From: Clostridiales bacterium
Lineage (GTDB): Bacteria; Bacillota; Clostridia; Christensenellales; Aristaeellaceae
Direction: 5' to 3'
NCBI GenBank assembly: GCA_015056085.1
Contig: SVHA01000006.1
Location: 11,729-75,728, forward strand
DNA length: 64,000 nt
How positions within the stretch are numbered: position 1 is the stretch's first letter; each line of letters starts with the position of its first letter. This document shows, piece after piece, positions 1,348 to 37,041 of this stretch. The notes below the pieces were generated by a model. The model worked only from the letters and a program-made list of their open reading frames with translations. It made no database searches and had not been told where the DNA came from. A program made the position numbers and the translations under genes.

Positions 1348-1500
1348 CCAGGGGGTGCAACCTCCTGGACTCCTTGGTGAGGGCTTTGCCCCCAGCAGGG
1401 GCTCCGCCCCTGCACCCCGTTCGGGGGCGCTGCCCCCGACACCCCCGCAAGGGCCATTGGCCCTTGACCCATTACCCCAAGCCCAAGGGCTTGGGGGATT
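1348..1500 (+). repeat. Module A: tandem GC triloop-hairpin array starting 1 nt after the stop codon
   Basis: Hairpins include gcaggggc-tcc-gcccctgc, tcgggggc-gct-gcccccga and the constant gcaagggcc-att-ggcccttg, each followed by ACCCC. Same module at 2391, 7108, 12644, 25747 and 26897. Confidence 0.9.
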
Positions 1501-1510
1501 GTTCATATGT
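1475..1510 (+). terminator. Terminator-like hairpin closing module A (ccccaagccc / gggcttgggg)
   Basis: 10-bp GC stem followed by attgttcatatg. The same stem at other loci is followed by a clearer T-run. Confidence 0.5.
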
Positions 1511-1542: not shown

Positions 1543-1675
1543 AGGTAGGGTTTCGCCCTCACGGGCGACCAAAGGGCTTTCCGATCGGTCCGCCTCCGCT
1601 TCGCTCCGGAAACTCGCCTTCGGCGACTGCCCACTGGGCAGTTCGTTTCCTTTGGAAACCTTCGGATGCAAGTAG
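1543..1675 (+). repeat. Module B1-long
   Basis: A gtgagg/cctcac-type hairpin, then ccaaagg...cctttgg closing a ~70-nt insert that contains cgcc-ttc-ggcg and ctgccc-act-gggcag hairpins. Colinear with the reverse complement of 12480-12600. Confidence 0.85.
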
Positions 1676-2115: not shown

Positions 2116-2157
2116 GAGCCACTGCTAAATTGTTCTTTACGGCAAGGCTTTTCTTGC

Positions 2158-2222
2158 AAGGTGAGGTTTCGCCCTCACGAGCGACCAAAGGGCTTTCCGA
2201 TCGCCCTTTGGAAACCTTCGGG
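2158..2222 (+). repeat. Module B1-short
   Basis: gtgagg-tttcgc-cctcac, then ccaaaggg-ctttccgatcg-ccctttgg (2185-2211), then gaaaccttcgg. Confidence 0.85.
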
Positions 2223-2307
2223 TACCCTCGGATGAAAGGGGTATTAGTCTGATGGTTGAAGAAACGGTTTCCTTTCCTCCGGTTAGGTCAACTCCAAACG
2301 GTGCGAG

Positions 2308-2344
2308 CCGAAGGGGTCCAGGGGGCGATCGGAAAGCCCCCTGG
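2308..2344 (-). repeat. Module B2-short (GGG/CCC stem variant)
   Basis: The plus strand reads ccgaaggggtccagggggcgatcggaaagccccctgg, which is the reverse complement of the B2 form at 6877-6913. Confidence 0.8.
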
Positions 2345-2383
2345 TTGCCCCGGCAAAGACAAGAGAGATGTACAAATGCCCTC

Positions 2384-2418
2384 AACAAAAAATCCCCCAA
2401 GCCCGTCAGGGCTTGGGG
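2384..2418 (-). terminator. Terminator-like hairpin closing module A downstream of hom
   Basis: The minus strand reads ccccaagccc-tgac-gggcttgggg followed by gattttttgttg. Confidence 0.6.
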
Positions 2419-3853: not shown

Positions 3854-4624
3854 TTACTTTTCCTGATTGCGCTGATACAGAATCCGCAGGCCCTTGAGGG
3901 TCAGCAGGCCGTCCAGCACGTCGATGGCCTTGGATTCCTCCGCCACCATCACTGCCATGCCGCCGGTGGCGACCACCTTGGCGTCTTTGCCCAGTTCCTG
4001 CTTGATTTTTCTCACGATATTGGTCACCAGACCCACATAGCCGTAGAACATACCCGACTGCAGGTTGGTGAGCGTAGAGCGACCGATGATCCTCTCCGGC
4101 TTGGTCAGTTCAAACCGGGGAAGTTTCGCCGTGCCGGAGACCAGCGCCTCGGAGGCCAGCTTGATGCCGGGGCAGATGCAGCCGCCCAGGAACACGCCGC
4201 CTTCGTCAATCACGCCGAAGGTGGTGGCGGTGCCGAAATCAATGAAAATCGTGGGTGCGCCGTATTCCTCATAGGCCGCCACAGCGTTGGCGATACGGTC
4301 GCTGCCCAGTTCCCGGGGATTCTCATAGCGGATGTTGATGCCGGTTTTGATGCCCGGGCCGATAAAGGTGGGCGTTTTTCCGAAATAGTTCTGGCACATA
4401 TGCTCGATGGTGAAGTTGATCGTGGGCACCACGGAAGAAATGATGATGCCTTCCACCGCATCACGGGTAAGGCCCACGTGGTTGAACAGGCTCGTGAGCG
4501 TCATGCCGTATTCGTCAGAGGTGCTGTACTTGTTGGTCGACATACGCCAGTAGTGCTTCATCTCCGGGCCGTCAAACAGGGCCGTTTTGATGTTGGTGTT
4601 GCCGATGTCCATGGTGAGAATCAT
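3854..4624 (-). CDS. coaX: Type III pantothenate kinase
   Basis: 256 aa. N-terminal MDIGNTNIK (ASKHA phosphate-1 motif) and typical CoaX length. Confidence 0.9.
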   Translation of the reverse strand: MILTMDIGNTNIKTALFDGPEMKHYWRMSTNKYSTSDEYGMTLTSLFNHVGLTRDAVEGIIISSVVPTINFTIEHMCQNYFGKTPTFIGPGIKTGINIRYENPRELGSDRIANAVAAYEEYGAPTIFIDFGTATTFGVIDEGGVFLGGCICPGIKLASEALVSGTAKLPRFELTKPERIIGRSTLTNLQSGMFYGYVGLVTNIVRKIKQELGKDAKVVATGGMAVMVAEESKAIDVLDGLLTLKGLRILYQRNQEK

Positions 4625-6328: not shown

Positions 6329-6384
6329 GGGGACACCTCCTGTCCTGTGGTTTCATGGTATGCGGGGGCGTTGCGGGTGTGTTC

Positions 6385-6832
6385 CTTGCAAGGGATAGCG
6401 CTTGTTGGGTGTTCTTTCTTGGGTCTGAGAAAACCCTTGCGGCATTTCGGTAATGATTAGCGTTCTTTCTCAAGCCTGGGAAAACCCTTGCGGCATTTCG
6501 GTAATGATAAGCGTTCTTTTTCGAGCCTGAGAAACCATTGCGGCATTTCGGTAATGATTAGTGTTCTTTCTCAAGCCTGAGAAAACTTTTGCGGCATTTC
6601 GGTAATGATTAGTGTTCTTTCTCAGGCCTGAGAAAGAACCAAAGAGGGCCAGAGGGGGTGTCTCAATTCATCCCACCCGGAGACACCCCCTCTGGACTCC
6701 CCCCTTTCCCCCTGTCTTGTGTTGGTTATTGAGTTGACTGCCCCACAAGCGCCTCGCAGGGGCGGCCCGTTTCAGGGTCGCTCCGATGGAGTCCGTGTGC
6801 GGCGACGGAGCGCCGCACGCCGGAACTGTTGT
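6385..6832 (+). repeat. Module D copy (contains the 51-bp tandem expansion)
   Basis: Runs from cttgcaagggatagcgcttgttgg to cgccgcacgccggaactgtt. The invariant 47-nt hairpin is at 6649-6695. Confidence 0.9.
6411..6640 (+). repeat. Tandem repeat, ~51-bp unit, 4 full copies plus the ancestral partial copy
   Basis: Units start at 6411, 6462, 6513, 6563 and 6614 (gttctttctcaagcctgagaaaacccttgcggcatttcggtaatgattagc). The whole unit repeats with no unique spacers. Confidence 0.9.
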
Positions 6833-6876
6833 GGAGTGTCTTGGTTGATACCTGTTTCACGACCTTGCCGTCACAA

Positions 6877-6913
6877 CCAGGGGGCTTTCCGATCGCCCCC
6901 TGGACCCCTTCGG
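6877..6913 (+). repeat. Module B2-short
   Basis: ccaggggg-ctttccgatcg-ccccctgg followed by accccttcgg. Confidence 0.85.
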
Positions 6914-7003
6914 CTTGACCCCTACCGGCAATCTTGAGCAAGCAACAAAAGAAAAACCGTTCCTCCAACAAGCAGGTTACAACCCTAAACAAGAGATGGG
7001 ACT

Positions 7004-7064
7004 CCGAAGGTTTCCAAAGGGCGATCGGAAAGCCCTTTGGTCGCCCGTGAGGGCGAAACCTCAC
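7004..7064 (-). repeat. Module B1-short
   Basis: The plus strand reads ccgaaggtttccaaagggcgatcggaaagccctttggtcgcccgtgagggcgaaacctcac. Confidence 0.85.
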
Positions 7065-7101
7065 TTTGCATAAAAGCATAGCCTGAAAGGAAAATCCATC
7101 T

Positions 7102-7133
7102 ACAAAAAATCCCCCAAGCCCTTGGGCTTGGGG
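7102..7133 (-). terminator. Terminator-like hairpin closing module A downstream of aconitase
   Basis: The minus strand reads ccccaagccc-aa-gggcttgggg followed by gattttttgtag. Confidence 0.6.
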
Positions 7134-7240
7134 TAATGGGTCAAGGGCCAATGGCCCTTGCGGGAGTCCAGAGGGCAGAGCCCTCTGGTGGGGCGTGGGG
7201 CAAAGCCCCACATAAGGGGGGCGTGGGGCGAAGCCCCTGG
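7108..7240 (-). repeat. Module A abutting the aconitase stop codon (7241)
   Basis: In gene sense there are three variable hairpins (for example gtggggc-ttt-gccccac and ccagagggc-tct-gccctctgg), then the constant hairpin and the terminator-like hairpin. Confidence 0.9.
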
Positions 7241-9169
7241 TCAAAGCCCTTCCCGGGTATAGTTCAGCAGTCCGCCGCAGAGGATGCAGCCCCGCTGGCG
7301 GTCGGTGAGGGGCATCAGGACGGTGTAATCCTCCTGGCGGGTGAGGTTGCGCAGGATGAACGCTTCGCTGCCGCATTCCACCAGCGGGCGCAGGGCGGGC
7401 AGAATCAGTTCATCACCGGGGGCGATGCGGTCGTAATCCGCCTCATCGGCAAAGGTCAGGGGCAGAATGCCGTTGTTGATGAGATTCGCCTGATGAATCC
7501 GGGCGAAACTCTTGGCGACCACCGCCCGCACGCCCAGATACAGCGGCACCAGGGCGGCGTGTTCCCGGCTGGAGCCCTGACCATAATTGGCGCCGGCCAC
7601 CAGAATGCCGCCGCCGGCTGCCTTCGCCCGGGCAGGGAAGGTGGCGTCCACCGGTGTGAGACAGAAATCGGCAAGGTAGGGCACGTTTGAGCGGAAGGGC
7701 AGGAGCTTGGCGTCGGAGGGCGCAATGTGGTCGGTGGTGATGTTGTCCTCCATTTTCAGCAGCACCTGGCCGGAAACATCATCCGGAAGCGTCCTGCCCA
7801 TGGGGAAGGGCTTGATGTTGGGGCCCCGCACCACATCCACCGTATTTTCCTGACCGGCGGCGACAGGGGGAATCACCAGATTGTCGTTGATTTCAAAGGT
7901 TTCCGGCTGGGGGATGTCCAGATCGATGTTCAGGCTGCGGGGATCCGTCAGCACGCCGGTGAGGGCGGTGATGGCGGCGGTTTCGCAGGAAACCAGATAG
8001 ATGCCGGCGCTGCGGGTGCCGCTGCGGCCGTAGAAATTGCGGTTGTTGGTGCGCACGGACACGGCGCCGGACTTGGGCGACTGCCCCATGCCGATGCAGG
8101 GTCCGCAGGCGGATTCCAGAATGCGGGCGCCGGCGCCCAGCATATCCGCCAGGGCACCGTTGCGGGCCAGCATGGTCAGCACCTGCTTGGAGCCGGGGCC
8201 AATCACCAGACTCACATCCGGGTGAACGGTCTTGCCCTTCAAAATCCGGGCGACACGCATCATGTCCGTGTAGGAGGAATTGGTGCAGGAGCCGATGAAC
8301 ACCTGATCTACCTTGATGGGCCCGCATTCTTCCACGGTGACCACCTCATCAGGCATATGCGGGCGGGCCACCAGCGGCACGAGGGCGGAAAGATCAATGT
8401 GGATGACTTCGTCGTAGACGGCGTCTGCATCGGCGCACAGGGGGGTGAAATCCCTCTCCCGCTGCTGGGCACGGAGGAAATCCCGGGTGATTTCATCCGC
8501 CGGGAAAATGGAAGTGGTGGCGCCCAGCTCGGCGCCCATATTGGCGATGGTGGCTCTTTCGGGCACGGACAGGGTCTTGACGCCCTCGCCGATGTATTCC
8601 ATCACCTTGCCCATGCCGCCCTTCACCGTCAGGCGGCGCAGCACTTCCAGAATGACGTCCTTGGCGGCCACGCCGTAGGGCAGGCGGCCGGTCAGCTCCA
8701 CACCCACCACCTTGGGGCAGGAGAGGTAATACGCTCCGCCGCCCATGGCCACGGCCACGTCCAGTCCGCCGGCGCCGATGGCCAGCATACCCAGACCGCC
8801 GCAGGTGGGCGTGTGGCTGTCAGAGCCCAGCAGGGTCATGCCGGGCACGCCGAAGCGCTCCAGATGCACCTGATGGCAGATGCCGTTGCCGGGCTTGGAG
8901 CAATAGATGCCATGCTTTTTCGCCACCGACTGAATAAACTGATGGTCGTCGGCGTTTTCAAAGCCGGTTTGCAGGGTGTTGTGGTCAATGTATGCTACGG
9001 ATTTCTTCGTCCGCACCCGGTCAATGCCCATGGCTTCAAACTGCAGATAAGCCATGGTGCCGGTGGAATCCTGGGTGAGGGTCTGATCAATGCGGATGGA
9101 AATCTCCGTGCCGGGCGTCAATTCGCCGGACAGAAGATGGTCGGACAGGATTTTCTGTGTCAGGTTCAT
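7241..9169 (-). CDS. Aconitate hydratase (short ~640-aa clostridial/Aquifex-type aconitase)
   Basis: Fe-S ligand motifs GSDSHTPTCGG, IGSCTNSS and CGPCIGMG. Start chosen at ATG 9169 (MNLTQKIL), with AAGGAG 7 nt upstream, rather than ORF-track 9217. Confidence 0.9.
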   Translation of the reverse strand: MNLTQKILSDHLLSGELTPGTEISIRIDQTLTQDSTGTMAYLQFEAMGIDRVRTKKSVAYIDHNTLQTGFENADDHQFIQSVAKKHGIYCSKPGNGICHQVHLERFGVPGMTLLGSDSHTPTCGGLGMLAIGAGGLDVAVAMGGGAYYLSCPKVVGVELTGRLPYGVAAKDVILEVLRRLTVKGGMGKVMEYIGEGVKTLSVPERATIANMGAELGATTSIFPADEITRDFLRAQQRERDFTPLCADADAVYDEVIHIDLSALVPLVARPHMPDEVVTVEECGPIKVDQVFIGSCTNSSYTDMMRVARILKGKTVHPDVSLVIGPGSKQVLTMLARNGALADMLGAGARILESACGPCIGMGQSPKSGAVSVRTNNRNFYGRSGTRSAGIYLVSCETAAITALTGVLTDPRSLNIDLDIPQPETFEINDNLVIPPVAAGQENTVDVVRGPNIKPFPMGRTLPDDVSGQVLLKMEDNITTDHIAPSDAKLLPFRSNVPYLADFCLTPVDATFPARAKAAGGGILVAGANYGQGSSREHAALVPLYLGVRAVVAKSFARIHQANLINNGILPLTFADEADYDRIAPGDELILPALRPLVECGSEAFILRNLTRQEDYTVLMPLTDRQRGCILCGGLLNYTREGL

Positions 9170-11997: not shown

Positions 11998-12080
11998 CCC
12001 GCAGGCTCCCCACCGCCTTGCGCTGGAGCCCCCTCCTGGAGGGGGCTTTTGTTTGTGCCATGCTAAGACTACTTGCATCC
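11998..12080 (-). repeat. Duplicated fragment of module D (direct repeat of 12404-12482)
   Basis: gcaggctccccaccgcc..ggagccccctcc.ggagggggcttttgtttgtgccatgctaagactacttgcatcc occurs twice about 405 bp apart. Confidence 0.85.
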
Positions 12081-12111: not shown

Positions 12112-12458
12112 GAAGCACGCTTCGTACCCGCTCCTCTACAACAGTTCCGGCGTGCGGCGCTCCGTCGCCGCACACGGACTCCATCGGAGCGCCCCCGAAA
12201 CGGGCCGCCCCCGCGAGGCGTTTGAGGGTAACTCAACTCAATAACCCTCACAAGACCGGGGGAAAGGGGGGAGTCCAGAGGGGGTGTCTCCGGGTGGGAT
12301 GAATTGAGACACCCCCTCTGGCCCTCTTTGGTTCTTTCTCAGGCCTGAGAAAGAACACCCAACAAACAATATCCCTTGCAAGAGGTCATACCCGCTGCAG
12401 CGCAGGCTCCCCACCGCCTGACGGCGGAGCCCCCTCCAGGAGGGGGCTTTTGTTTGTG
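12112..12458 (-). repeat. Module D copy (reverse orientation)
   Basis: The invariant 47-nt hairpin is at 12275-12321. The perfect palindrome gttctttctcaggcctgagaaagaac follows it. Confidence 0.9.
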
Positions 12459-12479
12459 CCATGCTAAGACTACTTGCAT

Positions 12480-12600
12480 CCGAAGGTTTCCAAAGGAAAC
12501 GAACTGCCCAGTGGGCAGTCGCCGAAGGCGAGTTTCCGGAGCGAAGCGGAGGCGGACCGATCGGAAAGCCCTTTGGTCGCCCGTGAGGGCGAAACCTCAC
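12480..12600 (-). repeat. Module B1-long
   Basis: The plus strand reads ccgaaggtttccaaaggaaacgaactgcccagtgggcag...ggaccgatcggaaagccctttggtcgcccgtgagggcgaaacctcac. Confidence 0.85.
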
Positions 12601-12629
12601 CTTGCATAAAAACATAGCCTGAAAGAAAA

Positions 12630-12671
12630 AACCACACATAAACAATCCCCCAAGCCCGTCAGGGCTTGGGG
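12630..12671 (-). terminator. Terminator-like hairpin closing module A downstream of the AI-2E gene
   Basis: The minus strand reads ccccaagccc-tgac-gggcttgggg followed by gattgtttatgtgtg. Confidence 0.5.
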
Positions 12672-12762
12672 TGATGGGTCAAGGGTCGAAGACCCTTGCG
12701 GGGGTGTCGGGGGCAGGGCCCCCGACCGGAGTGCAGAGGCAGAGCCTCTGCCAACGCCCCTC
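12644..12762 (-). repeat. Module A abutting the AI-2E transporter stop codon (12763)
   Basis: In gene sense: gcagaggc-tct-gcctctgc and tcgggggc-cct-gcccccga. The constant hairpin here reads caagggtc-ttc-gacccttg, a compensated C:G to T:A change. Confidence 0.9.
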
Positions 12763-16116: not shown

Positions 16117-17058
16117 TTAGCGCATAAACCAAGTGCTGATATAGCCGGTCTCGCCGTCAACATCCACCTTGCACCAGTCGGTGCCGTGTTCGATCACCGT
16201 CACCTTGGTGCCCACAGGCACGGTGCGGATGATGCTGCCCTTGAGGCTGGGCTGATTGCGGAAGTTGACAATGCTGCCGCCGTTGTAGTTCACCAGCGTC
16301 ATGGTGAAGGGCTTGATGGAGGCGTTTTCATTGGTAATTTTGAGGAAGGAGGCCATCATGTAGCCGATGGTGCCGTCTTCCGTCTGCACCTTGTGCCAGT
16401 CCTTGCCGCTCTTGACGATGGTCACCTTCGTGCCATTGCGGAACTGGCCCAGCACCTTGGCGTCCAGAGAGGGCTCGGCGCGGAAGTTGAGCACCTGGGT
16501 GTCACGGGGGTTGTTCACCACGGCCACCTTGCCCTGAGCGGCAGAGGGCTGCTCCTGAGCGAAGTTCAGGTATTCCGTGGCCATAAAGCCTTCCTGACCG
16601 TTCACCTTCACCCGGCTCCACTGGTGGCCCTTCTGTATCACGATCACTTCCGTGCCGGGCTTGAAAGAGGTGATGATCTCAGCGGAGAGGCTGGGGGCGT
16701 TACGGAGATTCAGGCCGATACCGGTGTTGGTGCGCACCTGCGCTTCCCGGTCCTCGCCGTCCCAGGTGAGGTACTTGGTCATCATGTAGCCGGACTTGCC
16801 GTTGACCTGCACCTTGCACCAGTCCTTGCCGTCTTCCACCACTTCCACCAGCGTGCCGGTGGGGAACTGGCCCAGCACCTTCGCCGTCAGAGAGGCTTCC
16901 TGGCGCAGGTTCAGCCGACCGCCCTTCACCAGTGCGCTGTCAGCAGCGTCAGCCATGGCGGCGCCTGCAAAGAGCATTGCAGCAGCGGCGGTCATGCCCG
17001 CCATGCGGCGCAGGGCGATGCGGGTTTTTTCGGGAGTGTTCTTCATGGGGGTCTTCAT
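16117..17058 (-). CDS. Secreted protein with four bacterial SH3 (SH3b) repeats
   Basis: Four repeats of LN(L/F)R..PSL.......G..V.V......W.KV...G..GYM. Signal peptide AAAAMLFAGAAMA. Start ATG 17058 (MKTPMKN) has AAGGAGG 9 nt upstream. Confidence 0.8.
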   Translation of the reverse strand: MKTPMKNTPEKTRIALRRMAGMTAAAAMLFAGAAMADAADSALVKGGRLNLRQEASLTAKVLGQFPTGTLVEVVEDGKDWCKVQVNGKSGYMMTKYLTWDGEDREAQVRTNTGIGLNLRNAPSLSAEIITSFKPGTEVIVIQKGHQWSRVKVNGQEGFMATEYLNFAQEQPSAAQGKVAVVNNPRDTQVLNFRAEPSLDAKVLGQFRNGTKVTIVKSGKDWHKVQTEDGTIGYMMASFLKITNENASIKPFTMTLVNYNGGSIVNFRNQPSLKGSIIRTVPVGTKVTVIEHGTDWCKVDVDGETGYISTWFMR

Positions 17059-17387
17059 TTGGGGTTTCCTCCTTTGGTGTTTTGCTGTGGGCGGTTTCTC
17101 GCCGCCTGCAATCATCCAACGCCGGAAATACGGGCGATATTGCTGGGAGAAATTGCCATCCGCCGCTCGAAACGGCTGATTTTCCTGATGCTGGAAACAT
17201 CGTGGCGGCAATGCCAATCAGCCCATGAAAGCCCCAGGGAAGAATTTCCAGAGAGAATTTCCGCTTTTTTTACAAAACCCATGCCCTGTCGGGCTGTACA
17301 CGGAAGCGTTTTTGCGGTACAATAACAGTGGCGTATTTTACGCACCTGTTTCCAACCTATTCTTCTGAAGGAAAAGGAGTCCTGAGT

Positions 17388-25715: not shown

Positions 25716-25746
25716 CCCCTCCGGAGCAATCCGGAGGGGTTTTTTG
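25716..25746 (+). terminator. Intrinsic terminator of the rpsF operon
   Basis: cccctccgga-gcaa-tccggagggg followed by tttttt. Confidence 0.9.
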
Positions 25747-25925
25747 TGGGGCTTTGCCCCTGCACCCTTTTGCGGGGCTTTGCCCCGCACCCCACCAGGG
25801 GCTCTGCCCCTGGACCCCGGTTGGGGGCCCTGCCCCCGACACCCCTTTCTGCGGGGCTTTGCCCCGCACCCCAGCAGGGGCTCTGCCCCTGCACCCCGCA
25901 AGGGCCATTGGCCCTTGACCCATCA
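25747..25925 (+). repeat. Module A, longest array (7 tandem hairpins)
   Basis: tggggc-ttt-gcccct, gcggggc-ttt-gccccgc, caggggc-tct-gcccctg, tgggggc-cct-gccccc, gcggggc-ttt-gccccgc, gcaggggc-tct-gcccctgc and gcaagggcc-att-ggcccttg. Each is followed by (C)ACCCC. Confidence 0.9.
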
Positions 25926-25964: not shown

Positions 25965-26004
25965 GAGGTAGTTTTGGACATTTGGCTTGTTTTCACCGGG
26001 GCAA

Positions 26005-26102
26005 CCAGGGGGCTTTCCGATCGGTCCGCCTCCGCTTCGCTTCGGAAACTCGCCTTCGGCGACTGCCCACTGGGCAGTTCGTTTCCCCTGGACCCCTTCG
26101 GT
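26005..26102 (+). repeat. Module B2-long
   Basis: ccagggg...cccctgg closes the same ~70-nt insert as B1-long, followed by accccttcgg. Confidence 0.85.
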
Positions 26103-26186
26103 CTGCATCCTTGTAAGTAGACTTTGCCGGAACAAAAAAACCGTTTCTCCTACAAACATACTAATACCCCTTCATCCGGAGGGAGC

Positions 26187-26247
26187 CCGAAGGTTTCCAA
26201 AGGGCGATCGGAAAGCCCTTTGGTCGCCCGTGAGGGCGAAACCCCAC
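26187..26247 (-). repeat. Module B1-short
   Basis: The plus strand reads ccgaaggtttccaaagggcgatcggaaagccctttggtcgcccgtgagggcgaaaccccac. Confidence 0.85.
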
Positions 26248-26287
26248 CTCGCACAAAGACTTGTTTTGGAGAAAAATCGTGCGACGG

Positions 26288-26637
26288 CACAAACAAAAGC
26301 CCCCTCCGGGAGGGGGCTCCGCCGTCAGGCGGTGGGGGAGCCTGCGCTGCTGCGGGTATGACCTCTTGCAAGGGATAGCGCTTGATAGGCGTTCTTTCTC
26401 AGGCCTGAGAAAGAACCAAAGAGGGCCAGAGGGGGTGTCTCAATTCATCCCACCCGGAGACACCCCCTCTGGACTCCCCCCTTTCCCCCTGTCTTGTGAG
26501 AGTTATTGGGTTGACTGCCCCACAAACGCCTCGCGGGGGCGGCCCGTTTCGGGGTCGCTCCGATGGAGTCCGTGTGCGGCGACGGAGCGCCGCACGCCGG
26601 AACTGTTGTAGAGGAGCGGGTACGAAGCGTGCTTCGG
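26288..26637 (+). repeat. Module D copy
   Basis: The invariant 47-nt hairpin is at 26426-26472. The 3' extension ggaactgttgtagaggagcgggtacgaagcgtgcttc is shared with L3. Confidence 0.9.
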
Positions 26638-26772: not shown

Positions 26773-26789
26773 AATAAGACTACTTGCAT

Positions 26790-26851
26790 CCGAAGGTTTC
26801 CAAAGGGCGATCGGAAAGCCCTTTGGTCGCCCGTGAGGGCGAAACCCTCAC
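26790..26851 (-). repeat. Module B1-short
   Basis: Same sequence as 7004-7064 and 26187-26247. Confidence 0.85.
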
Positions 26852-26885
26852 CTCGCACAAAAGCACAGTATGAAAGGAAAAGCCT

Positions 26886-26921
26886 ACATACAAAACATCC
26901 CCCAAGCCCTTGGGCTTGGGG
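26886..26921 (-). terminator. Terminator-like hairpin closing module A downstream of the zinc-ribbon/TPR gene
   Basis: The minus strand reads ccccaagccc-aa-gggcttgggg followed by gatgttttgtatg. Confidence 0.5.
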
Positions 26922-27054
26922 TGATAGGTCAAGGGCCAATGGCCCTTGCGGGGTGTAGGGGCAGCGCCCCCGACTGGGGTGCGGGGCAAAGCCCCGCAAA
27001 AGGGTCCAGGGGGCATAGCCCCCTGGTGGGTTCCCCAAGGGCAAAGCCCTTGGG
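26897..27054 (-). repeat. Module A abutting stop codon 27055
   Basis: In gene sense: cccaagggc-ttt-gcccttggg, ccagggggc-tat-gccccctgg and gcggggc-ttt-gccccgc, then one imperfect unit, the constant hairpin and the terminator-like hairpin. Confidence 0.9.
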
Positions 27055-29004
27055 TCAGTGCAGATACGTCCACAAAATCGCCGTACAGGCGCCGGAGGTG
27101 TTCAGGATGTACTCCAGCTGCCAGCGGTGGCCATCGCCGGTGCTGGCGATGTAGCGGATGATCTTCGTGCCGTCTTCCTGGAGATAAATCTTGCCCTTGT
27201 CGTCGTCATCTTCATACAGGCCGCGGTTGCCAGAAGCGCTGGCGACCTGGCCCATATCCTTGAACTTGCTTACGATGTCGCTTTCCATGGAGCCGATGCC
27301 GGTGCCGCGGGGGCCGCTGAAATAACTGCTGGTGAAGCACAGATCGCCCAGCACCCAGCCGGCGGAATTGTGGATCATGGTGACATAGCCCCAGGGATAG
27401 TAATACCGCATACATTCGTGCTGCAGCAGGGATGAAGTCACTGCCTCACTGCGCTCACCTTCGCCGTGCTGGAGGAAAAATTCCTCCCGGGTGGTGGCGG
27501 TCAGTTTCATGCCGCCGATGGCGTCAGCCATCTCAAAGGGCGCCTCCGGCCAGGGCTCAGCCATGATTTTGTAGGTGATTTCCTTGGTGTTGGAGGGCTT
27601 GCCGTAGCCGTTGACGGAAACCGCCCGGAGGGTGATCTTGCGGGCGGGCAGCTTGATGGGAGTGCCATCAAAAATGGGGCTGTCAGAATCCGGCGCAGAG
27701 CCATCAATGGTGTAGTAAATCACAATGTCCTGAGCCACGGGGTCTGTCAGGGTGGATTTATAGCCGGGATTCTTTTCCAGTTCCTCATCGGTGAGTTTGC
27801 CCGGCGTCAGGCGCACGGTCTGGGACTTCTGATAGGTGTTGGGGGCCAGATTGGCCTGGGGCTGCAGGGGCGTGGGCATGAAAATCTGATAGGTGACCTG
27901 CAGCGGGTCGCTGACGAGGGTCTCGCTGACAGCCACGGCCCGCAGCACGTGCTCGCCTTCTTCGCCAAGAGGGATGGTGCCCGTGTAGAGCGTGCCGCCC
28001 TCGGGCAGAACGGCCTCGGGGTCAAAGGTGTAGTAAATATCGTAGGATTCAGCGCTGGAAAGATTCAGCGACTTTTTCTGATTGTAATAGCCGCCGATGA
28101 GGTCTACGGTGGGGATGGAGGGCAGCAGTTCGCTGCGCTGCTGCAGGAAGGTCTCCTGACCGGTTTTTTCGTAGGCGAGTTTGAGCAGCTCGGCTGCTTC
28201 CGGGTCCCGGCGCTGGCTCAGGAGAATGCGCACCATGCTGCGATAGGCCTCCGGGGCGCTGGGGGCGATCTCCGTGTAGATTTCGGTGTAGAGCGCTTCG
28301 GCTTCTTCCAGGCGGCCGTCGGCTTCATAGGCGCTGCACAGGCTCATCAGGCCGGTGACGTTGATGTTGTCCTTGCCGTCCTTTTCCCGGGCCAGCAGGA
28401 AATACTCCACTGCGCCGTCGATGTCGCCGGTGTCCAGACGTTCTTCGCCCACCTGCCACAGAGCGGCAGCCTCGGCGTCCACGCCCATGCGGGCCAGAAT
28501 CAGCTGACCGCCGGGCGTCTTGTCCAGATACATATACATCCCGAAAGCGCCCAGCAAAAGCAAAATCACCAGCGCAATGGTGACATACGCCCAGTTGACG
28601 CCGCTGAAGCGCTTCTTTTTCGCCCGGCGATGGCGCACCCGCTCGCTGCCGGGCAGAAGGCCTTCGGCGGCCAGGCTGTTGTTGACTTCCCTCAGGGAGC
28701 GGATTTTCTCCGTGCCCATGCGGTCGCCGTTTTCGTCGTAGATTTCCGGGTCGGCGTACAGGGGGATATTGGTGGAGCTGCTGCGGGCAGAGGCGTCCAC
28801 ATAGGTGCGGCTGGCGCCCCTGCGGGGTACAGGCGCCGGAGCGGGGGACACCGGGCGAGCGGGGGTGCTCCTGGAACCGGTGCGACCCTGGCGGATGTTC
28901 TGCACACCGCCGCCGGATCCTTCGTCATGGGTCAGCAGCGTCTGACACTGGGGGCAGAGAATATCCTCTGCCGTGGCGTATGCGCCGCATTTGGGACACA
29001 GCAT
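27055..29004 (-). CDS. Zinc-ribbon / single-TM / TPR protein with two chitobiase-C-like (Ig-like) repeats
   Basis: MLCPKCGAYATAEDILCPQCQ is a zinc ribbon. TM segment VTIALVILLLLGAFGMYMYL. A TPR-like segment is present, plus IYYTFDPEAVLPEGGTLYTGTIPL and IYYTIDGSAPDSDSPIFDGTPIKL. AAGGAGGG lies 7 nt upstream. Confidence 0.75.
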   Translation of the reverse strand: MLCPKCGAYATAEDILCPQCQTLLTHDEGSGGGVQNIRQGRTGSRSTPARPVSPAPAPVPRRGASRTYVDASARSSSTNIPLYADPEIYDENGDRMGTEKIRSLREVNNSLAAEGLLPGSERVRHRRAKKKRFSGVNWAYVTIALVILLLLGAFGMYMYLDKTPGGQLILARMGVDAEAAALWQVGEERLDTGDIDGAVEYFLLAREKDGKDNINVTGLMSLCSAYEADGRLEEAEALYTEIYTEIAPSAPEAYRSMVRILLSQRRDPEAAELLKLAYEKTGQETFLQQRSELLPSIPTVDLIGGYYNQKKSLNLSSAESYDIYYTFDPEAVLPEGGTLYTGTIPLGEEGEHVLRAVAVSETLVSDPLQVTYQIFMPTPLQPQANLAPNTYQKSQTVRLTPGKLTDEELEKNPGYKSTLTDPVAQDIVIYYTIDGSAPDSDSPIFDGTPIKLPARKITLRAVSVNGYGKPSNTKEITYKIMAEPWPEAPFEMADAIGGMKLTATTREEFFLQHGEGERSEAVTSSLLQHECMRYYYPWGYVTMIHNSAGWVLGDLCFTSSYFSGPRGTGIGSMESDIVSKFKDMGQVASASGNRGLYEDDDDKGKIYLQEDGTKIIRYIASTGDGHRWQLEYILNTSGACTAILWTYLH

Positions 29005-35424: not shown

Positions 35425-37041
35425 ATGCTCCCTTCCACTGATTCTCAGGCCTTCCGGGACCTGCTCCATCAGCAGGTGGAGAAGCGCCGCACCTTTGCCA
35501 TCATTTCCCATCCCGACGCAGGTAAGACGACCCTGACCGAAAAGCTGCTGCTTTACGGCGGAGCCATCCGCTCTGCCGGCAGCGTCAAGGCCCGCAAGAC
35601 GGACAAGCACGCCACCTCCGACTGGATGGAGATTGAAAAGCAGCGCGGCATTTCCGTCACGTCCTCTGCCATGCAGTTTGAGTTTGACGGCTTCCGCATC
35701 AATATTCTGGACACCCCCGGCCATCAGGACTTCTCCGAGGACACCTATCGTGTGCTGGTGGCGGCGGATGCTGCCGTCATGCTCATTGACGCCGCCAAGG
35801 GCGTGGAAGCCCAGACCATCAAGCTGTTCAAGGTCTGCCGGATGCGCAACATCCCCATCTTTACCTTCGTGAACAAGATGGACCGTGCCGCCAAGGATCC
35901 CTTTGCCCTGATGGAAGAACTGGAACAGGTGCTGGGCATCCGTTCCTGCCCCATCAACTGGCCCATCGGCGTGGACGGCGACTTCCAGGGCGTGTATCAC
36001 CGGGATACCAGGCTGATTGAACTCTACACCGGCGGCAACCATGGCCAGAGCCGGGTGGAAAAGACGGTCATCGCCAAGGACGATCCGGCGTTGGAACATA
36101 TCCTCGCCAAGCACTACCGGGACCGCCTGGACGAAGAAGTCGAACTGCTGGATGAAGCCGGCGACGCCTTTGATCTGGACGCCGTGCGCCGGGGCGAACT
36201 GACGCCCATGTTCTTCGGCTCTGCCGTGACCAACTTCGGCGTGGAGCCCTTCCTGGAGCGCTTCCTGCAGTATACGCCGCCGCCTCTGTCCCGCCTGAGC
36301 GATCAGGGCGACATAGGCCCGGAAGAGCCTTATTTCTCCGGCTTTATCTTCAAGATTCAGGCCAACATGAATCCCGCCCACCGGGACCGCCTGGCCTTTA
36401 TGCGCATCGTGTCCGGCGCCTTTGAAAAGGGCATGGACGTGTGGCATTCCGGCTCGGGCAAGCAGGTCAACCTCAAGCAGCCCCAGCAGTTCATGGCGGA
36501 CGAACGGGAAGCGGTGGAGGAAGCCTGGGCCGGCGACATCATCGGCCTGTTCGACCCCGGCATCTATCAGCTGGGCGACACCCTGTCCACCGGCCCCAAA
36601 CTGCACTATGAAAACATCCCCGTGTTCGCCCCTGAATTCTTCAACCGGGTGCGTCCGCTGGATTCCATGAAGCGCAAGCAGTTCCAGAAGGGCATCACCC
36701 AGCTGGCGGAAGAAGGCGCCATCCAGACCTTCATCCGCACGGAAACCGGCCGGGAGGAATTCATGGTCGGCGTGGTGGGCGTCTTGCAGTTCGAAGTGCT
36801 GGAACACCGCCTCAAGACGGAGTATCAGGTGGATATCGTCATGGAAGGGATGCCCTTCCGCTTCGTGCGCTGGGTGGTCAACACCCCCAAGCCTGTGGAG
36901 AACCTGAAACTGACCTCCTCTTCCGGCCGGGCCAAGGACAGCCGGGGCCGGGATGTGCTGCTGTTTGAAAACGAGTGGTCCATCCGCCTGGCCGGCGAGA
37001 ACAATCCTGGGCTGGAACTGTCCGACACCGCCAGCCGCTGA
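35425..37041 (+). CDS. prfC: Peptide chain release factor 3
   Basis: RRTFAIISHPDAGKTTLTEKLL is the G1 motif, DTPGHQDF is G3, and the length is typical of RF3. Confidence 0.95.
   Translation: MLPSTDSQAFRDLLHQQVEKRRTFAIISHPDAGKTTLTEKLLLYGGAIRSAGSVKARKTDKHATSDWMEIEKQRGISVTSSAMQFEFDGFRINILDTPGHQDFSEDTYRVLVAADAAVMLIDAAKGVEAQTIKLFKVCRMRNIPIFTFVNKMDRAAKDPFALMEELEQVLGIRSCPINWPIGVDGDFQGVYHRDTRLIELYTGGNHGQSRVEKTVIAKDDPALEHILAKHYRDRLDEEVELLDEAGDAFDLDAVRRGELTPMFFGSAVTNFGVEPFLERFLQYTPPPLSRLSDQGDIGPEEPYFSGFIFKIQANMNPAHRDRLAFMRIVSGAFEKGMDVWHSGSGKQVNLKQPQQFMADEREAVEEAWAGDIIGLFDPGIYQLGDTLSTGPKLHYENIPVFAPEFFNRVRPLDSMKRKQFQKGITQLAEEGAIQTFIRTETGREEFMVGVVGVLQFEVLEHRLKTEYQVDIVMEGMPFRFVRWVVNTPKPVENLKLTSSSGRAKDSRGRDVLLFENEWSIRLAGENNPGLELSDTASR

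Follow-up and report, generated by a model that had tools for sequence, protein, structure and literature searches.

BOX (boxA/B/C), RUP, Correia/NEMIS and ERIC elements are modular, multi-copy intergenic hairpins that are co-transcribed with their neighbours and often lie at the 3' ends of genes. Module B, a repeat found in the 64,000-nucleotide stretch of Clostridia DNA analysed here (hereafter the window), is likewise short, multi-copy, intergenic and modular, and it folds into hairpins. However, it has no sequence relationship to any of these elements. Its three-way junction, invariant asymmetric loop and fixed-position blocks set it apart, as does its spread, which takes in many genera and phages and is not limited to a single species group.

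In BIMEs, Y and Z units alternate in inverted doublets, and REP elements are mobilised by RAYT transposases. Module B resembles REP elements, BIMEs and REPINs in that it consists of extragenic palindromes with two stem types arranged in inverted doublets, forms mosaics, avoids promoters and reaches many copies. Unlike those elements, it is associated with target duplications and DDE-type ends and has a conserved 11-nt loop, and neither a GTAG foot nor a RAYT gene was seen. Integron attC sites provide another comparison, since there too a structure is kept while the stem varies, a central region varies in length, and a folded single strand is recognised, as we propose for module B. However, all aligned copies of module B lack the RYYYAAC/GTTRRRY core sites, and the repeats show neither a cassette array nor uniform orientation, forming convergent pairs instead.

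MITEs derived from ISL3 transposons offer a further parallel. The ISL3 element ISArsp7 (GGCTCTTCGCGTTTCGTGGTGAAT) generates an 8-bp duplication (PMC6305408), and an ISL3-derived MITE with GGCTCTTCG ends and 8-nt repeats has been described in Microcystis (PMC11448079). Composite units of module B in RGIG2676, a goat-omasum MAG, are alike in being 250-350 bp long, in lacking an ORF, and in having GG[C/T]TCTTC TIRs and 8-bp A/T-rich duplications. They differ in that the ~105-bp ends of the B units hold a folded module, and in that the two ends carry different stem variants. Also unlike such MITEs, the copies in the window have decayed ends and no recognisable duplication, and no autonomous partner (a copy with a DDE_Tnp_ISL3 transposase and the same ends) was found in ~2 Mb of loci or among ~35 window ORFs.

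The family that module B represents is new but its kind is familiar, and module B is not a proven new RNA. It is probably the structured core of a widespread new family of small, non-coding, non-autonomous, MITE-like repeats of uncultured gut Clostridia and their phages, and the repeats with this core are best read as ISL3-mobilised in at least one lineage. A role at the RNA level is possible, and unproven.

Module B copies in the window

The window derives from an uncultured, high-G+C Clostridia genome, and its homoserine dehydrogenase recurs without change on contigs from goat gut and other metagenomes. The first-pass annotation had listed nine copies of module B with an unchanged loop, and this count is confirmed by nine exact occurrences of CTTTCCGATCG (mean in shuffled sequences 1.33; 0 of 100 shuffles reach nine). 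The loops start at 1577, 2193, 6885 and 26013 on the + strand and at 2326, 7022, 12558, 26205 and 26808 on the - strand. A covariance model built from relatives recovers the same nine copies in the window and no others (E<1e-6). The flanks of each copy agree with the proposed division into six B1 copies, which have the stem CCAAAGGG/CCCTTTGG and the tail GGAAACCTTCGG, and three B2 copies, which have the stem CCAGGGGG/CCCCCTGG and the tail GGACCCCTTCGG. A CGCCC-TCAC-GGGCG hairpin (P2) lies upstream of every B1 copy in the window, and the B2 copies carry no P2.

The nine copies make up three composites, in which B1 faces B2 within 250-315 bp, and three solo arms. Module B forms the inner half of each ~105-bp inverted end in the composites. 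Composite unit 1 (2130-2382) is convergent, with a B1 arm at 2157-2231 (+) and a B2 arm at 2298-2374 (-), and ~66 nt separate its two covariance-model matches. Composite unit 2 (6841-7097) has a B2 arm at 6845-6923 (+) and a B1 arm at 6994-7068 (-); the B1 outer end, GGATTTTCCTTTCAGG, stops at 7097, and the B2 outer end is degraded. Composite unit 3 (25967-26279) pairs a long B2 arm at 25975-26111 (+) with a B1 arm at 26177-26251 (-). In these three convergent B1/B2 pairs (2193+/2326-, 6885+/7022- and 26013+/26205-), the loops lie 133-192 nt apart, an arrangement that the first-pass annotation had missed.

The solo arms are all of type B1. The first, a long form at 1511-1675 (+; 45.7 bits, E=5e-11), comprises an outer end GGGATTTTCC at 1511, P2, the loop-bearing hairpin P3, the loop itself at 1577-1587, and a tail running to CCTTCGG. 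The second is a long form at 12470-12633 (-), with its loop at 12558-12568 and its outer end at 12633. The third is a short form at 26780-26884 (-), with its loop at 26808-26818 and an outer end, GGCTTTTCCTTTCAT, that extends to 26884.

The long forms (B1 at 1541-1675 and 12470-12604, B2 at 25975-26111) share a common block that differs by a single C/T between B1 and B2. This expansion of the P3 loop occupies 1588-1648 (+; GTCCGCC...CGTTT) and 12497-12557 in the solo arms, and 26024-26084 in the B2 arm of composite unit 3. An insert of ~70 nt had been placed after gatcg in both stem variants; its position directly after GATCG and its presence in both variants are correct, and its length is 61 nt (net +60). 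The block takes the place of the first C of the P3 3' strand, so that the closing stem, which matches its own variant as had been claimed, measures 7 bp. Long forms in several genomes have a block that starts after CG-N-TCG with [G/A/T]TCC and measures 60-175 nt. Block sequences are unrelated between genomes and enter at the same position. Within one genome, one block can be found in both stem variants, namely in B1 and B2 in the window and in AGA and 7-bp AGG arms in RGIG2676; site-specific entry, repeated precise loss and conversion are possibilities here. The idea that the block is an independent, nested mini-element finds no support, since a search of the window and of ~1.2 Mb from related loci showed none of the blocks outside module B. 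Thus, the blocks are an optional hairpin expansion and not a free mini-element, and the 61-nt block probably represents an enlargement of the P3 loop peculiar to this lineage.

All nine copies are confined to four unusually long gaps of 850-1370 nt, three of which lie between convergent genes. The gaps separate a DnaJ-like gene from hom, a PNPOx-like gene from the aconitase gene, a ybjN-like gene from an AI-2E transporter gene, and rpsF-ssb-rpsR from a gene for a TPR protein. Every copy examined is intergenic. The last 37 kb of the window (27056-64000) holds no copy despite a 1-kb gap at 35966-36975, and no tRNA or tmRNA was found.

The gaps that carry module B are built as mosaics from several families of repeats. 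Directly after stop codons or terminators lie arrays of G+C hairpins, each 20-28 nt long with a 3-nt loop (1350-1470, 2440-2545, 7140-7241, 12680-12760, 25745-25920 and 26940-27055), examples being GGGGC-NNN-GCCCC, CCAAAGGGC-AAA-GCCCTTTGG, CCAGAGGGC-AGA-GCCCTCTGG and CCAGGGGGC-ATA-GCCCCCTGG. These triloop hairpins share stem variants with P3 of module B, and three of them are weakly matched by the covariance model. Directly outside the outer ends of B arms is a terminator-like hairpin, CCCCAAGCCC-N4-GGGCTTGGGG, with a T-run (1475-1505(+), 2395-2418(-), ~7110-7140(-), 12640-12670(-) and 26895-26920(-)), which may represent an A/T-rich landing site. A 231-nt repeat whose copies are 68-95% alike is present at 1783-2013, 6606-6836 and 26383-26613, and inverted near 12140-12370; it holds a near-perfect 16-bp hairpin, CCAGAGGGGGTGTCTC...GAGACACCCCCTCTGG. 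Another module, GGATGCAAGTAGTCTTAGCAT.GCACAAACAAAAGCCCCCTCC.GGAGGGGGC, adjoins solo B1 arms, is also present without module B, and has a terminator on the opposite strand (1660-1760, 12000-12080, 12401-12481 and 26283-26345). At least four units of a tandem repeat with a 50-51-nt period, 63-90% alike, occupy 6380-6632. Elsewhere, an ORF at 16117-17217 (-) encodes four bacterial SH3 domains, and its 222-nt DNA periodicity registers as a direct-repeat family.

Base pairing in module B and its relatives

Window copies of each type are near-identical, and from P2 to CCTTCGG the B1 copies are identical except for one base. The window alone therefore shows two near-clonal lineages and cannot separate covariation from clonality. 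Relatives were collected by several scans. A genome scan with CCNNNGGGCTTTCCGATCG returned at least 112 loci which, among the matches listed, belong mostly to Clostridia, Christensenellales and Oscillospiraceae MAGs from ruminant, chicken and human gut. The same pattern matched 32 IMG/VR contigs, ~22 of which have true members according to the covariance model. A metagenome scan in which the AAA stem and the tail were fixed and the loop was left free gave at least 120 loci, mostly from the human gut. The ~400 copies gathered come from MAGs of gut Clostridia, from phage contigs and from metagenomes of the human gut, and the host sources of the family include goat, sheep, deer, chicken and human gut MAGs in addition to phage contigs.

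The consensus is GGGG-TTT-[TCGC NNC TGCG GNN GCGA]-[CCAAAGGG C TTTCCGNTC G CCCTTTGG]-AAA-CCTTCGG, which includes three base-paired substructures. P1 is a weak helix, RRGG(TTT)/(AAA)CCTT, that is plausible and whose 3' strand never varies. P2 is an optional hairpin, TCGC-NNC-TGCG-GNN-GCGA. P3 is a G+C-rich hairpin of 8-9 bp with the loop CTTTCCGNTCG, and the core closes with an invariant CCTTCGG.

P3 is found in at least 12 fully complementary stem variants among the relatives. The most common is AAA/TTT (49 copies), followed by AGA/TCT (23), a 7-bp AGG form (~21), AGG/CCT (13) and GGA/TCC (6). Singletons are CAAGGGGG/CCCCCTTG, CCAAGGGG/CCCCTTGG, AAAGGGGG/CCCCCTTT, ACGGAGGG/CCCTCCGT, GTGGAGGG/CCCTCCAC, CCCGGGGG/CCCCCGGG, GCAGGGGG/CCCCCTGC, CCGGGGGG/CCCCCCGG and GGAGGGGG/CCCCCTCC, and only a handful of copies are uncompensated. 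The first-pass annotation had stated that the two sides of the B1 and B2 stems change together, and this is true both of the nine window stems, all of which are complementary, and of the compensated variants in relatives. It had also named the case that would overturn its reading, namely two clonal lineages with no intermediates; the relatives instead supply AGA/TCT, AGG/CCT, GGA/TCC and the singletons. P2 likewise has at least eight compensated variants of its inner stem (CTC/GAG, GCC/GGC, GTC/GAC, TCC/GGA, CC/GG, CAC/GTG, CGC/GCG and ATC/GAT), and its TGCG loop is kept in 149 of 211 copies while the stem changes.

In two model-based alignments, 93.5% and 96.5% of cells are paired, compared with 33-50% in slid controls, and none of 500 shuffles reaches the observed covariation score. 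Because the alignments follow the model and draw on related copies, these values serve as support and are not probabilities. RNAalifold on a MAFFT alignment was uninformative because the 7-bp variants were misaligned. A first count of G.T versus A.C suggested an asymmetry (68 versus 22) that was inflated by alignment shifts, and a clean count for P3 shows none. The P3 stem is under a pairing constraint. Such covariation is equally expected for single-stranded DNA hairpins and for structured RNA.

The scan that left the loop free recovered CTTTCCG-N-TCG in 72 of ~75 short copies, and thus GATC as such is not conserved. About 45 human-gut copies (e.g. L153:5860-5915) have a 27-29-nt loop, C-AATGAAAA-[CAGAC-GAA-GTCTG]-CGNTCG, in which TTTC is swapped for AATGAAAA and a small hairpin. 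This represents a second expansion site. The nested hairpin itself covaries (CAGAC/GTCTG, CAAAC/GTTTG, CAGGT/ACCTG and CGGAC/GTCCG).

The 3' tail changes with the stem, as GGAAACCTTCGG versus GGACCCCTTCGG had suggested, though not by Watson-Crick pairing. The bases between P3 and CCTTCGG track the 5' strand of P3 in the same direction (G->C, A->A/T, C->G), a rule that holds over at least 10 variant classes with a few exceptions. The upstream strand does not follow the tail, and the most frequent class (AAA with AAA) departs from the pyrimidine triplex code. A UUCG mini-hairpin in the tail and pairing with the upstream strand were both considered, and neither accounts for the variable part. The rule may reflect linkage within subfamilies or a contact between parallel strands. 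If the latter, covariation would take an unusual form here, one that escapes standard tools.

Vehicles and mobility

Evidence for mobility is clearest in RGIG2676, whose loci hold dozens of module B arms. There, an AGA arm faces a 7-bp AGG arm across ~90 nt in units of 250-350 bp, and the paired arms end on both sides in GG[T/C]TCTTCACG, 54-65 nt outside the core. The flanking 8-mers are A/T-rich and match at 8 of 8 positions (AGAAAACA), 7 of 8, 7 of 8, 6 of 8 and lower, giving a mean of 5.4 versus 3.8 when permuted (p=0.003). The end GGCTCTTCACGTTTCGT agrees with the ISArsp7 IRR, GGCTCTTCGCGTTTCGT, at 16 of 17 bases. The arm pairs of the window share this geometry, and their ends, which resemble GGATTTTCCTTTCAGG, lie at the same offset (62-63 nt), directly after the T-run of the terminator-like hairpins. 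These ends resemble ISL3 repeats weakly, and no 8-bp duplication is recognisable around the three window composites. Convergent pairs are the commonest arrangement of module B, with spacings of 133-150 and 195-200 nt, and they recur in human-gut loci.

No transposase was found between two B arms in ~2 Mb of B-centred loci, and no recurrent one nearby. All-against-all clustering of 1287 ORFs from these loci gave housekeeping and phage clusters only and no shared transposase. In the window, a scan of ~35 ORFs found no transposase, including none of the Y1/HUH type.

Module B also occurs in other vehicles. A Z-type vehicle of ~230 nt carries a single B core between the TIR CAGACTGCTGA (inverted ends CAGACTGCTGA.AAAG), and a terminator-like hairpin specific to each locus is directly duplicated over 17-19 bp at its flanks (L026, L031, L089, L104, L112 and L113, the last around 3900-4300). 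In phages, a bare form consisting of P3 and the tail is wedged between ORFs. Thus, module B is more than an ISL3 end. It also forms tandem arrays that repeat every 99-150 nt. One contig, L116, is clearly that of a phage, with terminase, portal and capsid genes and with the modules in intergenic gaps. Three tandem B modules lie on the sense strand between its terminase and portal genes (1203-1515), and a further one precedes the capsid gene, again on the sense strand (4542-4618).

A search for an empty site, for a single element with a perfect duplication, gave no match. Between orthologous loci, none of nine indels is a presence/absence difference of module B, and other MITEs are polymorphic there. 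Elements present or absent between near-identical human-gut loci (L152:6152-6311, L209:4453-4623, L151:2609-3435 and L222:9572-9653) include two MITE-like insertions, an 825-nt IS-like insertion and an 80-nt outer piece of a B arm without the core.

The family appears to be undescribed in the resources searched. A plasmid collection had no match to module B, a phage collection matched only in unannotated faecal virome contigs, a literature search on the loop sequence returned unrelated primers only, and the literature on ISL3 MITEs in Firmicutes yielded no description of the family.

In the mechanism we propose, the units in the window would have been moved in trans by an ISL3-family DDE transposase, and the putative parent of the MITE would be an ISL3 transposase gene flanked by GGCTCTTCACG ends. 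The units would have landed in A/T-rich runs behind terminators, which would place copies in long gaps downstream of genes. The stems would be retained by a need of the module to fold when single-stranded, with read-through RNA a somewhat likelier form of that strand than single-stranded DNA. For a protein, the conserved loop and CCTTCGG probably serve as recognition sites.

RNA, hairpin DNA and other readings

A tentative alternative is that module B is itself a structured non-coding RNA, in which a three-way junction presents a protein- or RNA-binding loop and transposon-like vehicles merely spread it. The RNA would act in cis, by 3'-end protection, processing or insulation, or in trans, as a decoy or regulator. 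Two of its loops have the UNCG-type character favoured by this reading, namely cUGCGg in P2 (the loop kept in 149 of 211 copies) and cUUCGg in the tail. In addition, about half of the copies have G.T pairs in P1, where the opposite strand would have A.C mismatches. The top strand also folds 1.1 kcal/mol better than the bottom strand with RNA parameters and does not do so with DNA parameters, although this gap is small and comes from copies that are not independent of one another. The UNCG-type loops and the folding preference hint at a role for RNA, which the MITE reading has no need of, and they count against that reading. The two loop expansion sites, one with a covarying nested hairpin, and the presence of the same core in several vehicles and in phage gaps also speak for an RNA.

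On phage contigs, 16 copies are sense and 8 antisense relative to genes, and these copies are non-independent. No such bias is evident in bacterial genomes, where solo arms in co-directional gaps are sense in 22 cases and antisense in 24, based on crude gene calls (GC3-based ORF choice), and a second count is about equal at 27:26. The same survey of genome loci found 22 solo arms in convergent gaps and one in a divergent gap (1/69), an avoidance that is weaker in the human-gut set. Also unfavourable to an RNA is that no sigma-70-type promoter was found upstream of module B on the right strand in the window or in three Z-type loci, and that Rfam 15 gives no match at the gathering score over the window and nothing meaningful on module B (1350-2550) at E<=10. 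The annotation had viewed the compensatory changes as the signature of a functional RNA or DNA structure. The pairing constraint in that claim stands (93.5-96.5% paired), whereas a functional RNA is not supported, given the random orientation, the lack of a promoter in the regions searched and the location of the module, in relatives, within the inverted ends of transposon-like units that have target duplications.

The stronger form of this idea is doubtful: that module B is an undescribed and abundant class of RNA in human and ruminant gut Clostridia and phages, with a function of its own (platform/decoy or regulator) and an invariant CUUUCCGNUCG loop, spread by unrelated transposon chassis. 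We are similarly hesitant about the architecture that it would have, in which a three-way junction with UNCG-capped helices and two expansion sites is joined by a 3' strand running parallel to the P3 purine strand, possibly as a base triple. If the RNA reading is true, module B would rank among widespread structured RNAs, and its protein-binding loop would be open to testing.

It is unlikely that module B is a REP-like hairpin of single-stranded DNA, nicked by an HUH enzyme (RAYT/IS200-type or Rep-like) in or next to the loop, at the site where the blocks enter. The G+C-rich P3 of 9 bp, the conserved loop of 9-11 nt and the covarying stem are as in REP elements, IS608 ends and rolling-circle origins, and the inverted doublets resemble REPINs and BIMEs. 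All blocks enter at one phosphodiester after CG-N-TCG, and divergent promoters are avoided. However, the second expansion site lies elsewhere in the loop, and the composites are bounded by DDE-type terminal repeats and flanked by 8-bp target duplications. REPINs and IS200/IS605 elements are not known to make target duplications. There is also no GTAG-like foot in the alignments and no Y1/HUH gene among the window ORFs scanned.

Template switching in quasi-palindromes can alter both arms of a hairpin in one event. It is therefore conceivable, if improbable, that the paired changes are unselected products of hairpin-templated quasi-palindrome correction during replication and of subfamily amplification, and that module B is decaying junk. 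The near-identity of window copies within each type would fit, as would the old and fixed appearance of many copies. However, families, hosts and phages all share an unchanged asymmetric loop, CCTTCGG and P2 loop despite their differing stems, the nested hairpins covary, and the module is retained in three vehicles that are unrelated to one another.

Finally, it is highly improbable that P2 mimics the hairpin of a type I-C CRISPR repeat, as a solitary repeat unit or RNA anti-CRISPR on mobile elements: although the window P2, CGCCCTCACGGGCG (1553-1566 and the other B1 copies), equals 14 nt of the Xanthomonas citri I-C repeat, GTCGCGCCCTCACGGGCGCGTGGATTGAAAC (PMC9504256), and the family also occurs in phages, the match is limited to this 14-nt hairpin and is probably a coincidence of the kind that short G+C hairpins easily produce, given that the GGATTGAAAC handle is absent, no array is present in the loci, P2 in other genomes differs and is I-C-like only on the opposite strand, and B2 arms and phage forms have no P2.

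A MITE-like repeat family with module B as its structured core therefore remains our preferred reading. The family appears to be among the commonest conserved non-coding motifs of gut Clostridia, and it is without an Rfam model. Cataloguing module B would improve the annotation of long "empty" intergenic regions and would account for contig breaks in MAGs. It would also provide a marker for ISL3-type activity in uncultured Firmicutes.
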